In this document: piece after piece, positions 20,383-25,791 of the stretch | How positions within the stretch are numbered: position 1 is the stretch's first letter | How the letters are laid out: each line of letters starts with the position of its first letter | Assembly (NCBI GenBank): GCA_036732045.1 | Contig: DAINDD010000001.1 | Span: forward strand, 60,828 to 122,729 | DNA from: Chloroflexota bacterium | GTDB lineage: Bacteria; Chloroflexota; Dehalococcoidia; SM23-28-2; RBG-16-64-32 | Direction of reading: 5' to 3' | DNA: 61,902 nucleotides | Notes under the pieces: model-generated | Database searches by the model: none | Told to the model about the DNA's origin: nothing | The model's input: the letters and a program-made list of their open reading frames with translations, nothing else | Made by a program: the position numbers and the translations under genes

Positions 20383-20475
20383 CTTACGCGAAAGAAGTCA
20401 GATGCAGAATGACGGAAGAACACGAACCACCTCTTTCTTTCCTTCCGCCTCCCGCTCACCCGTATAATCGCTTTG

Positions 20476-23400
20476 GTGAACCCACACGAACTGCGCGAAG
20501 CCTTCCTGCGCTTCTTCGAGGAGCGAGGCCATCGCCGCGTGCCCGGCGCGCCCATCGTCGCCACCGACGATGACCCGACGTTGTTCTTCACGAGCGCAGG
20601 CATGGTGCCGTTCAAACCGTATTTCATGGGCCAAGCCAATCCACCCTGGACGCGCGCGGTATCGGTACAGAAGTGTTTTCGAGTCAGCGATATCGAGTCC
20701 GTTGGGGACACCTCGCACCTCACGTTCTTCGAGATGCTGGGCAATTTCAGCTTCGGCGACTACTTCAAGGCCGAGGTCATTCCTTGGGCGCACGAGTTCC
20801 TGACGCAGGTGCTGAAGCTGCCGGCCGAGCGTCTCTGGCCGGCGATCTTCCAGGACGACCACGAGGCGTTCGATCTCTGGCGCAAGCAGGGTTTCGCGGC
20901 CGAGCGGATCATGCGCTACGGCGAAGAGGACAACTACTGGTTCTCCGGAGACGTTGGTCCCTGCGGCCCCGACTCCGAGATCCACTACGACTTCGGCGAG
21001 CAGTTTGGCTGCGGTCCGGACTGTCACCCCTCGCACGGACACGACCGCTTCGTCGAGATCTGGAACCTCGTCTTCATGACCTACTACTGCGACGGCGAAA
21101 AGCGCGAGCTGCTGCCGAAGAAGAACATCGACACCGGCTCCGGCTTCGAGCGCGTGATGTCGGTGCTTCTGCACAACGCTCCAGGCTGGGACAAGAACAA
21201 GATTCCGTCCGTTTACGAAACCGAGGTCTTCGCGCCGCTGATCCGCCGCATCGAGCAACTATCCCTCAAGCACTACGGCGCCGATGAAGCCAGCGACCGC
21301 GCAATCCGCATCGTCGCCGAGCACGCGCGCGCCGTCACGTTCCTCATCGGCGACGAGCGCACGCCCGTCATCCCTTCGAACGAAGAGCGGGGCTACGTCT
21401 GCCGCCGGATGCTGCGACGGGCGGTCTACTTTGGCCGCCGTCACCTCGGCATCGAAGAGCCATTCATGGCCGACCTGGCGAACACGGTTGTCAAAATGAT
21501 GAAGGACTCGTACCCAGAGCTCCTTCGCCAGCGTCAATTCGTCGCAAATATTGTGGCCCCTGAAGAGCAGCGCTTCGACCAGACGCTGCAGCGTGGTCTA
21601 GGCATCCTTGAATACGTAATCCGCTTGCGAAAGTTCGTCGCAGCGAAGTTTAGGCCAGTCGAGGATCACTGGGAGGATTGGTTCCGAATTTCTCAGCGTC
21701 CTGCTGAACTGATGGCCACTGTCGGACACGTTGAGCTGGACGAATTTCTTACAGAGATTCTGCCGCTGATCGTCACAATCTTCGAAGAGAATGAGCGGAC
21801 GGATGATTCTCTCGCGAAACGCGCGTTCACAACGAGTGGCGGTCTTTCGTCGGTGGCGATGCTCGAGATCAGCGGCGCGGCGTTCAAGCTACAAGACTGG
21901 CTCAAGGATTGGCGCAAGAAATTGAGCTCAGGCGAGGTGGCGTTCGATCCGACAGATTTGCGCAAGCGAGTCGCTGAATTCAAGCGTATCGTGAACACGA
22001 TCTCAGGTGGCGAAGCATTTGAACTTCATGATACCTACGGTTTCCCGATCGACCTAACGCGTGACATCGCCGAACAGAACGGCTTCACCGTTGATATCGC
22101 TGGCTTCGACGAAGAGATGAGGCAACAGCGGGAGCGTGGTAGGGCTCAGTTCAAAGGCGCGGAGAGGGTCGCTGCGGACACGCTCTACGCCTCCCTCGTC
22201 GCTAATCCGACGCAGTTCACCGGCTACCAAGAGTTGGAAACGAAATCAAAGATCGTGGCGCTCCTTCTTACGTCAGATGTTGTCGACACGTTGCGGCGGA
22301 CGCACGCCGACGAGTTACCGGATTCGGTTCCGCAAGTCGCTGAGGAGGCGGGTTCTAGGCAAGACGTCGAAGTCTTTCTCGCCGCCACGCCGCTCTATCC
22401 CGAAGGCGGCGGCCAGGTTGGGGATCGCGGCGAGATCGTCGGGCCGGACGGGCGGGTCGAAGTGCTGGACACGCAGCGTGTCGCCGGCAAGCTGATCATC
22501 CACCGCGGCCGCGTCGCGGAAGGCCGTATCGCCGTCGGCGACGAGGTGACCGCGCGCGTCGATCCGGCGCACCGGGGCAACACCAAGCGCAACCACACCG
22601 CCACGCACCTGTTGCACGCCGCGCTTCGAGACGTCATCGGCCCGCACGTGCGCCAGGCGGGTTCGCTCGTGGCGCCGGACCACCTTCGCTTCGACTTCAC
22701 CCACACCGAAGCGGTCACGCCGGAGCAGCTCGCCGGCGTCGAGTCGCTGGTAAACGAGAAGGTTCGGCAGGACGTGCCAGTGCACACCCGCGAGACGTCG
22801 TTCGACGAGGCGATTGGGGAGGGCGTGCTCGCCTTCTTCGGCGACAAGTACGGCGACCGCGTCCGCGTCGTTGAGGTAAACACGGTTGTCCCGCGGTTCA
22901 GCGCAGAGCTCTGCGGCGGCACCCACTGCGAGCGCACGGGTGAGATCGGCGCGATCATCATCACCGGCGAGTCGTCCATCGGCTCCGGCATGCGCCGCAT
23001 CGAAGCTCTGACCGGCGCTGGCGCGGAACTTCACATCCGGGAACAGGAGCAACTGATCGAAGGTGTTGCCAAGGGGCTAGGCGTGCCACGACGCTCGCTT
23101 AGGCAGAAGATAGATTCGTTGATTAAAGAACGCGAGGATCATCTTAGGCAGATTCAGAAACTTACAATAGCGATGGCACACAACCCATCGCTCGGACATA
23201 TCAGTTGGAATGCCTCTGATGTTGAGGGGATAGAGGTAAGGACGCTGTCGACTGAAGTTCCTAGTGTTGATGCCTTACGGTACTTCGCAGACAGCATTCG
23301 CAAACAGTTCCCCACGGCTGTCAGCGTGGTCGGTGCGGTCGTAGACGACAAGCCAATGTTCGTCGCCATCGTCCCGAAAGACGTCATCGAGCGCGGGGTC

Positions 23401-23556
23401 CACGCCGGCAACCTGCTGAAGCGCGTCGCGGCCGTCGCCGGAGGTAGCGCGGGCGGGCGGCCGGACATGGCACAAGGCGGCGGCAAGGACGTCGCGAAAC
23501 TAGATGAGGCGCTGGCCGTCGTCCCTGGTGCGGTGCGCGAAATGCTGGGAGGCTAG
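20476..23556 (+). CDS. alaS: Alanine-tRNA ligase with large internal insertion
   Basis: LFFTSAGMVPFK, HLTFFEMLGNFS, EIWNLVFM, FELHDTYGFP, NHTATHLLH, ELCGGTH, GGRPDMAQGGG; TATAAT 7 nt before GTG. Confidence 0.97.
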   Translation: MNPHELREAFLRFFEERGHRRVPGAPIVATDDDPTLFFTSAGMVPFKPYFMGQANPPWTRAVSVQKCFRVSDIESVGDTSHLTFFEMLGNFSFGDYFKAEVIPWAHEFLTQVLKLPAERLWPAIFQDDHEAFDLWRKQGFAAERIMRYGEEDNYWFSGDVGPCGPDSEIHYDFGEQFGCGPDCHPSHGHDRFVEIWNLVFMTYYCDGEKRELLPKKNIDTGSGFERVMSVLLHNAPGWDKNKIPSVYETEVFAPLIRRIEQLSLKHYGADEASDRAIRIVAEHARAVTFLIGDERTPVIPSNEERGYVCRRMLRRAVYFGRRHLGIEEPFMADLANTVVKMMKDSYPELLRQRQFVANIVAPEEQRFDQTLQRGLGILEYVIRLRKFVAAKFRPVEDHWEDWFRISQRPAELMATVGHVELDEFLTEILPLIVTIFEENERTDDSLAKRAFTTSGGLSSVAMLEISGAAFKLQDWLKDWRKKLSSGEVAFDPTDLRKRVAEFKRIVNTISGGEAFELHDTYGFPIDLTRDIAEQNGFTVDIAGFDEEMRQQRERGRAQFKGAERVAADTLYASLVANPTQFTGYQELETKSKIVALLLTSDVVDTLRRTHADELPDSVPQVAEEAGSRQDVEVFLAATPLYPEGGGQVGDRGEIVGPDGRVEVLDTQRVAGKLIIHRGRVAEGRIAVGDEVTARVDPAHRGNTKRNHTATHLLHAALRDVIGPHVRQAGSLVAPDHLRFDFTHTEAVTPEQLAGVESLVNEKVRQDVPVHTRETSFDEAIGEGVLAFFGDKYGDRVRVVEVNTVVPRFSAELCGGTHCERTGEIGAIIITGESSIGSGMRRIEALTGAGAELHIREQEQLIEGVAKGLGVPRRSLRQKIDSLIKEREDHLRQIQKLTIAMAHNPSLGHISWNASDVEGIEVRTLSTEVPSVDALRYFADSIRKQFPTAVSVVGAVVDDKPMFVAIVPKDVIERGVHAGNLLKRVAAVAGGSAGGRPDMAQGGGKDVAKLDEALAVVPGAVREMLGG

Positions 23557-25132: not shown

Positions 25133-25791
25133 TGCTGCAGTGGGCGCTCTTAGGCATCTTCATTGGCTTCCTCGGCCTTGCCTACATCATGATCCAGGGC
25201 ACTCGCGCCGCGCTCGCCTGGCGTACCGCCGCCGACAAGGGCGACCTCGACGTCATCCGTGACATCCTGGAGGACGCGCTCAAAGGCTGGTCAACCCAGA
25301 AGCGCCCGAAGCCCATTGCCCCGGAAGTCTGGCGCGGCATCCAGAGCCTGCAGCTGGCCGGCCTAGCTTCCGGCTACGTCCGCGTCTCCTGCGTCGCCGC
25401 CAGCGAGTACAAGATGCAGGACGGGCGCTGGATCGAGCTGCGCAACCCCCTGCAGGAGGGGATGGCGGTCACGGCAAAGGCCGCCGACATGCTGCTGTAC
25501 GAAGTCATCCACTACCGACCAGAGAAGCTCCAGATCGACGTCTACACCGACTACCGCGACGACTCCGGCTCGACCCGGCGCCAGTGCGTGCTCTCCACGC
25601 TGGCCAGCCGCGACCAGGCGCGCGAGATCAACTGGGAGGAGTGGACGCCGGAGCAGATCGTCGAAGCGCTGGGCGGACACTACAGCCTCGGAGACAGCGG
25701 CCGCCCCATGCCCATCGAGCCGATCGCGCCGCCGGAGCCGCCGGCCGAAGAGCAGACCGAACGCGCCGCCCCCGCGAAGGCTCGCCAGTGA
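25132..25791 (+). CDS. Hypothetical protein with N-terminal membrane anchor
   Basis: TGATG overlap with aroE and GTGA overlap with aroC; MLQWALLGIFIGFLGLAYIMI. Confidence 0.7.
   Translation: MLQWALLGIFIGFLGLAYIMIQGTRAALAWRTAADKGDLDVIRDILEDALKGWSTQKRPKPIAPEVWRGIQSLQLAGLASGYVRVSCVAASEYKMQDGRWIELRNPLQEGMAVTAKAADMLLYEVIHYRPEKLQIDVYTDYRDDSGSTRRQCVLSTLASRDQAREINWEEWTPEQIVEALGGHYSLGDSGRPMPIEPIAPPEPPAEEQTERAAPAKARQ

Follow-up and report, generated by a model that had tools for sequence, protein, structure and literature searches.

The alaS gene and its insert

The window analysed here, by which we mean the whole 61,902-nucleotide (nt) stretch of Chloroflexota DNA, carries alaS, the gene for alanyl-tRNA synthetase (AlaRS; 1027 amino acids; 20473..23556, + strand). 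Within this gene lies a 123-residue insert (residues 385-507; 21625..21993, + strand) that has no counterpart in solved AlaRS structures and whose four to five helices, in an AlphaFold2 model, complete an up-down bundle together with a prolonged conserved helix of the enzyme. Nucleotide positions are those of the window, and residue numbers are those of this AlaRS. The source genome of the window is denoted G000, other G numbers denote the genomes with which it was compared, and g and f numbers denote genera and families of the same order.

The gene was identified by its Pfam matches, by matches to AlaRS fragments in the Protein Data Bank (PDB; E 6e-122) and by a genome search in which the window copy was the sole alaS match. 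The G000 genome is a draft of 230 contigs, and marker genes give an estimate of ~91% completeness and 3.3% contamination. In the encoded protein, the insert divides the tRNA-synt_2c match (PF01411, E 7e-169) into two stretches, and both an editing domain (PF07973, tRNA_SAD, E 7e-15) and a C-Ala domain (PF02272, DHHA1, E 2.5e-13) are present. With these domains and with the Asn and Asp that read G3:U70, the protein is a bacterial class II AlaRS. The codon of the Asn, N303 in the motif PSNEERGY, was located by alignment to PDB entry 3hxz (21379..21381, + strand), and that of the Asp, D520 in HDTYGFP, by alignment to the E. coli enzyme (22030..22032, + strand), 13 residues past the insert. We take these residues to correspond to N303 and D400, respectively, of E. 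coli AlaRS. Recognition of G3:U70 by a conserved Asn and a conserved Asp is an established property of AlaRS (PMC8887476), and the tRNA-Ala genes of G000 are canonical and have G3:U70 in 3 of 3 cases. A third tRNA-Ala(UGC) gene, which differs in sequence type, is located on a tiny contig (C218:472-546) and may stem from the ~3% contamination rather than from this organism.

The original prediction, made from the DNA alone, was that 132 residues separate the TLQRGL motif from the next conserved motif, at a site where a short spacing is typical. That count proved exact for the interval from TLQRGL to TISGGEAF (residues 377-508; nt 21601-21996), and the same spacing is 13-18 residues in insert-free relatives. 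When G000 AlaRS was compared with PDB chains using phmmer, the match broke at residues 384 and 508. The solved Aquifex and E. coli enzymes have 7 residues each where G000 has 123, and none of the AlaRS structures in the PDB has a domain at the insert loop. The insert is also in frame and AT-richer than its surroundings, as had been noticed: its reading frame is open along the full length, and its GC content is 0.545 versus 0.648 for the window. Tryptophan makes up 3.3% of the insert versus 0.9% of the rest of the enzyme and occurs in the paired motifs DHWEDWF and QDWLKDW, in agreement with the description of the peptide as Trp-rich.

Conserved sequence lies close to the insert on both sides. 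The left conserved arm, EEQRFDQTLQRGL (residues 364-376; 21562..21600, + strand), adjoins the insertion site upstream, is kept in all relatives and is a candidate homology arm; at the left junction, 31 of 34 nt are the same in G000 and the insert-free genome G005. The right conserved arm, ISGGEAFELHDTYGFP (residues 510-525; 22000..22047, + strand), includes D520 and aligns to the ...LYDTYGFP motif of the E. coli enzyme.

Distribution, families and history of inserts at the loop

Relatives were sampled as 41 genomes and then as all 65 genomes of the order, among which 50 AlaRS had both flanks readable. The presence of an insert was scored by how far apart the NEERGY and DTYGFP motifs lie, a distance of 217 residues in G000, 97-101 in insert-free forms and 128-258 in the other forms found among the genomes of the order. 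None of the five assessable genomes of the same genus (G000 left out) has an insert at the loop, and 19 of the 50 AlaRS of the whole order have one, with 46-159 extra residues. The alignment for which the original prediction had called thus reveals a site that is hypervariable in the lineage and not a standard, conserved segment. The variation extends to within genera: the extra residues in genus g3 number 0, 0, 52, 109 and 159, and carriers account for one of seven genomes in g8, one of four in g15 and one of two in g17. Across the rest of the class (108 genomes), at least 12 genomes show gaps of about 30-110 amino acids at the site, and in the other classes of the phylum (87 genomes) there is no gap of 40 amino acids or more among the matches listed. 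The reading frame is retained in every carrier. These results, together with the predicted structure described below, show that the insert is a real, in-frame, helical, non-intein segment at a class-specific hot spot, and it would be expected to stay in the mature AlaRS.

Two further observations were made on the alaS genes of these relatives. A second, smaller insertion hot spot lies ~50 residues upstream, after FGRR.LG (equivalent to residues ~320-345); 30-40 extra residues occur there in G016, G029, G061, G031 and G035, other extra segments occur in G046, and none occurs in G000 (loci L020, L059, L056, L058, L063 and L043). In G001, which belongs to the same genus as G000, alaS (L062; G001:C2:55500-58800) is recovered as four frame-shifted match pieces and has a very long tree branch; these breaks are probably long-read indel errors rather than signs of a pseudogene.

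An all-against-all BLASTP comparison of the 19 inserts resolved three families (G000, G028, G010 and G052; G017 and G041; G029, G031 and G061) and ten singletons. The G000 and G028 inserts align over 92 ungapped residues with 26% identity and 52% positives (E 2e-10), and the alignment includes the motif DWLKDW in G000 and DWLRDW in G028. G028 and G000 are members of different families within the order. As judged from these sequence similarities, the G000 insert has homologues among the inserts of other such families.

A maximum-likelihood tree was built from the flanks only (882 columns, with the insert columns removed). In this tree G000 clusters with the other members of its genus, as part of a clade of 13 taxa that has support of 100% in the Shimodaira-Hasegawa-like approximate likelihood ratio test, and the only carriers in the clade are G000 and G041, whose inserts belong to different families. 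The presence of an insert changes at least ten times on the tree, and eight of these changes are forced by strongly supported branches. Approximately unbiased tests rejected a single clade of all carriers (log-likelihood difference 1854, p 2e-51), a single clade of the G000 insert family (p 4e-56) and a single clade of G017 and G041 (p 8e-45); the groups were chosen after inspection of the tree, and the margins are very large.

The clearest case of exchange is that of G041 and G042. Their alaS genes are 93-97% identical at the nt level, and this identity falls to 42-60% in codons ~275-450, with sharp edges. The low-identity block contains the 93-residue insert of G041, which matches the insert of the distant G017 (E 3.5e-23). 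Thus, a bounded cassette has been replaced by recombination in this pair. A clean indel distinguishes G052 from G024, with flanks that are 87-97% identical and conserved up to the junction. The divergences of inserts and flanks disagree with one another: for G010 and G028, insert identity is 38% and flank identity 70%, whereas for G010 and G052 the values are 25% and 79%, respectively.

Predicted structure, composition and constraint

We modelled residues 5-600 with AlphaFold2, using an alignment of 47 relatives as input, and obtained a mean predicted local distance difference test score (pLDDT) of 82.9 and a predicted template modelling score (pTM) of 0.80. Within the insert, the pLDDT of most blocks is 67-93, and a single stretch of 10 residues falls to 50. 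When residues 374-520 were modelled by themselves, the pLDDT was 75.9 and the pTM 0.71. The model of residues 5-600 matches AlaRS catalytic fragments in Foldseek with E 2e-33 and target-normalised template modelling scores (TM) of 0.80-0.83. In this model an unbroken helix spans residues ~354-406, such that the conserved helix that normally ends at ~384 is prolonged by ~22 residues; four further helices follow, and then the conserved ISGGEAFELHDTYGFP helix (ISGGEAF..HDTYGFP). The insert is therefore modelled as an autonomously folding module that protrudes from the enzyme as a generic up-down four-helix bundle. The bundle is predicted to lie in the distal loop of a helical hairpin in the tRNA-recognition domain, between N303 and D520, which agrees with the earlier placement of a helical peptide in that domain.

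Fold searches, which the original prediction had likewise proposed, returned generic four-helix matches only. The best Foldseek hit of the insert in the PDB has E 0.3, with generic up-down four-helix bundles as matches; a structure search of the ESM Atlas gave TM values of 0.53 or less; and VIA-align gave Z scores of 10.6 or less, mostly for designed bundles, which for helical proteins is too low to be meaningful. No Pfam family matched the G000 insert even at E 10, or ten of the other inserts, and a feature search of the ESM Atlas returned AlaRS fragments only, with scores of 0.83 or less.

The GC content at third codon positions (GC3) of the insert is 0.64, compared with 0.83 +/- 0.075 for 123-codon windows in 43 likely genes, which places it in the lowest 3%. 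The low GC is less diagnostic than had been supposed, because the same drop is seen in the inserts of other carriers and in variable alaS linkers. In all carriers examined (G000, G012, G010, G028 and G052), the GC3 of the insert is 0.53-0.72 and that of the flanks is 0.85-1.0. Outside the insert, a second hypervariable low-GC3 segment, recognised from GC3 and identity, lies in the linker before C-Ala (residues ~851-950; 23023..23322, + strand), with a GC3 of 0.45-0.62 versus 0.82-0.95 in G005 and G008. Another fast-evolving low-GC3 patch lies at 22273-22392 (residues ~601-640). The two patches have a GC3 of 0.45-0.68 versus 0.75-0.95 in close relatives, and they share with G005, the nearest relative, 30-60% of amino acids and a fraction of 0.32-0.55 of nt. 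With wider limits for the second segment (residues 841-960), GC3 is likewise low and identity is again 30-60%. The alaS gene of G000 is thus a mosaic beyond the insert.

Selection on the inserts was assessed from nonsynonymous (dN) and synonymous (dS) divergence. In the close pair G029 and G061, dN/dS is 0.26 for the insert versus 0.19 for the flanks, and purifying selection on the insert of this pair is relaxed but real. Among the larger insert families, dN of the insert is 3-8 times that of the flanks; when the G000 insert is compared with those of G028 and G012, synonymous sites are saturated.

The surroundings of alaS are those of an ordinary housekeeping gene: upstream, the opposite strand encodes a CorC/CBS protein and a hexapeptide transferase, and ruvX and aroE follow downstream. 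The lowest GC3 of the window, 0.43-0.50 over 123 codons, is found at 25262-25620, in a small open reading frame (ORF) between aroE and aroC. Within the catalytic domain of AlaRS, a Cys/His-rich stretch, GEQFGCGPDCHPSHGHDRF (residues ~171-190), contains ~9 residues that are extra relative to Aquifex AlaRS. The stretch is kept across the order, C180 and P182 are invariant in the alignment, and a metal-binding knuckle is one possible identity for it.

Origin of the insert and comparison with known systems

We consider it probable that the insert is a dispensable, fast-evolving surface module that has spread through allelic recombination. In the class, probably the Dehalococcoidia, the loop is a hot spot that is either empty or filled with 30-160 extra residues of many unrelated-looking sequences, and the G000 module would be one allele of a polymorphic cassette. 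The motifs EEQRF..TL.RG and SG.EAF.LHDTYGFP may act as homology arms, and cassettes would therefore be gained, replaced or lost through homologous recombination between alaS alleles, as is seen directly in G041 and G042 and as we infer for G000. For G000, one gain is preferred over at least three exact losses on grounds of parsimony. The donor would most likely be an unsampled one that carried an insert of the G028/G010/G052 family. Very close relatives with and without an insert coexist, which means that AlaRS can perform its core function without the module; it would be dispensable for aminoacylation and would evolve at several times the rate of the remaining enzyme while staying foldable and in frame. 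Any function of the module would accordingly be accessory and outside the core mechanism, and its low GC3 would accompany weak constraint or recent import rather than mark a specific foreign element.

Several results weigh against this explanation. In a word-based search with the insert among 5.8 billion proteins, the sole hit was the protein itself, a profile search of 1.84 billion cluster representatives returned only two spurious repeat proteins, and neither search found a donor or a close relative of the G000 insert. Insert-bearing AlaRS are probably concealed in 50%-identity clusters that have insert-free representatives, and for this reason the profile search says little. Low GC3 is common to other variable, fast-evolving parts of alaS and so marks weak constraint or turnover and is no proof of import or of a foreign origin. 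The immediate flanks of the insert are most like those of the same genus, and the DNA is genus-like up to both junctions, so that any crossover would have to lie within the conserved bracketing motifs; it is thus parsimony and composition that suggest a recombination tract in G000. In addition, the confident fold, the frame kept in all carriers and a dN/dS below 1 show that the module is not junk, and a real accessory function is therefore conceivable.

Such a function is the basis of a rival explanation that we regard as possible but doubtful and that follows the original prediction of an effect on tRNA or partner binding, namely that the bundle is a selected arm that contacts tRNA-Ala (at the elbow or D-arm, for example) or docks a partner, and that it tunes recognition, editing hand-over or a moonlighting activity. 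The position of the insert within the tRNA-recognition domain, at a distance of 13 residues from the Asp that reads G3:U70, would suit this role, as would the confident independent fold in AlphaFold2, the preservation of the frame in every carrier, the purifying selection in one insert family (dN/dS 0.26) and the paired Trp motifs DHWEDWF and QDWLKDW, which are partly common to G028 (KDWLRDW). However, near-identical AlaRS exist with and without inserts, the inserts at this loop cannot be aligned with one another and vary in length between 30 and 160 amino acids, the tRNA-Ala genes of G000 are canonical, and no match to a known domain or fold points to RNA or protein binding. In a variant that we consider highly unlikely, the bundle would be a diversifying surface cassette that is swapped and reshaped between lineages because a lineage-specific factor docks on this side of AlaRS, such as a variable partner, a toxin or inhibitor, or a product of a phage. 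The synthetase would then be a polymorphic locus on which selection of the balancing or arms-race kind acts, and the conserved motifs would serve as recombination arms. It is also unlikely, although less so than this variant, that the insert is ancestral to the order or class, has diverged fast and has been deleted precisely many times, with G000 simply having retained it and no horizontal gain having taken place. Edges common to many carriers (an LLP.R... start and an ...LSG.EAF end), a clade f6 that consists mostly of carriers and the genus-like nearest flanks of G000 fit such a history. It would, however, require at least three independent exact losses in the g1+g8 clade alone and at least ten changes overall, and it does not sit well with the discordant divergence of inserts and flanks, with the bounded imported cassette of G041 or with the lack of detectable mutual similarity among most inserts.

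A degenerate selfish element, whether an intein, an intron, an in-frame repeat or the variable region of a diversity-generating retroelement (DGR), has been brought close to refutation and is very improbable, even though the distribution is patchy, the GC content is low, an imperfect 26-nt inverted repeat lies near the insert ends (21622-21647 and 21943-21968, 77% complementary) and the insert ends in Asn-Thr (VN|T, without His). The segment lacks Cys and a His-Asn end and has an all-helical model, and it is therefore not an intein; in keeping with this, and with the absence of intein hallmarks claimed in the original prediction, no Hint or endonuclease family of Pfam matches it. A group I or II intron or another structured RNA was rejected because there is no Rfam match at E <=1 in 21300-22300 and the frame is open in all carriers. 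The segment is single-copy in G000 as both DNA and protein, which excludes repeat elements of the kind of miniature inverted-repeat transposable elements (MITEs) or Rickettsia palindromic elements (RPEs) as well as a DGR target with a template repeat, given that the G000 genome (~91% complete) holds no second or template copy; moreover, the inverted repeats are imperfect and terminal inverted repeats are not consistent across the other carriers. Internal duplication of neighbouring AlaRS helices was rejected as a source for want of similarity, and one isolated resemblance was seen, a 21-nt direct repeat that encodes RQRQFVA and RLRKFVA. An antisense ORF at 21693-21998 has no family match. Finally, a chimera of assembly or binning could be suspected in a draft of 230 contigs with 3.3% contamination, but it is barely credible here: the identical protein occurs in four NCBI/ENA and JGI records that differ in source, the contigs being 122.7, 88.8, 20.6 and 2.3 kb long, so the insert is no assembly artefact, and inserts occur at this site in dozens of independent genomes.

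The class to which G000 belongs tolerates and actively exchanges domain-sized inserts a few residues from the reader of G3:U70, in an enzyme that is cited for its single prototype structure (PMC8887476). This amounts to a natural experiment on the permissiveness of the tRNA-recognition domain, and it offers a ready-made permissive site for the engineering of AlaRS fusions. Intragenic mosaicism in a phylogenetic marker gene also bears on tree building for these uncultured lineages, and should the cassette prove functional, it would add a new accessory module to those of the aminoacyl-tRNA synthetases (aaRSs). In the literature that we searched, neither an insertion at this loop nor polymorphic AlaRS cassettes are described.

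The closest comparisons are with the solved enzymes of A. aeolicus (1RIQ and 3HTZ) and E. coli (3HXU and 3HXZ), which are the same enzyme with the same domain order; the catalytic and G3:U70-reading residues are conserved, and the N-terminal 596 residues superpose. They differ in having a 7-residue turn in place of the 123 residues of G000. Like other aaRS insertion modules, the insert is non-catalytic and occupies a surface loop. Modules of this kind tend to be fixed and conserved throughout large clades, whereas members of one genus differ here in the presence, length and sequence of the insert, and the cassette has been recombined between alleles. Most aaRSs have expanded by insertion modules or appended domains, but AlaRS has not and has kept one prototype four-domain structure across life, with rare exceptions that include the split Nanoarchaeum enzyme and a domain inserted upstream of the editing domain in Leishmania major (PMC8887476). 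The L. major enzyme likewise has a lineage-specific domain within an otherwise invariant four-domain AlaRS; compared by its description, it differs in being eukaryotic, in having its site before the editing domain rather than within the tRNA-recognition hairpin and in not being reported as polymorphic or exchanged (PMC8887476). The species-specific domain insertion in E. coli GyrB (PMC2995079), likewise an essential housekeeping enzyme, is restricted to a clade, longer than 100 residues and folded in its own right, whereas the AlaRS insert is sporadic and apparently dispensable. With inteins the insert shares an in-frame, patchy occurrence in an essential gene, but it lacks a Hint fold, splice-junction residues and a homing endonuclease, and it occupies a variable loop rather than an active-site motif. 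The insert thus belongs with the lineage-specific insertion modules of aaRSs, among which it is unusual in its position next to the identity-reading residues and in its cassette-like turnover.

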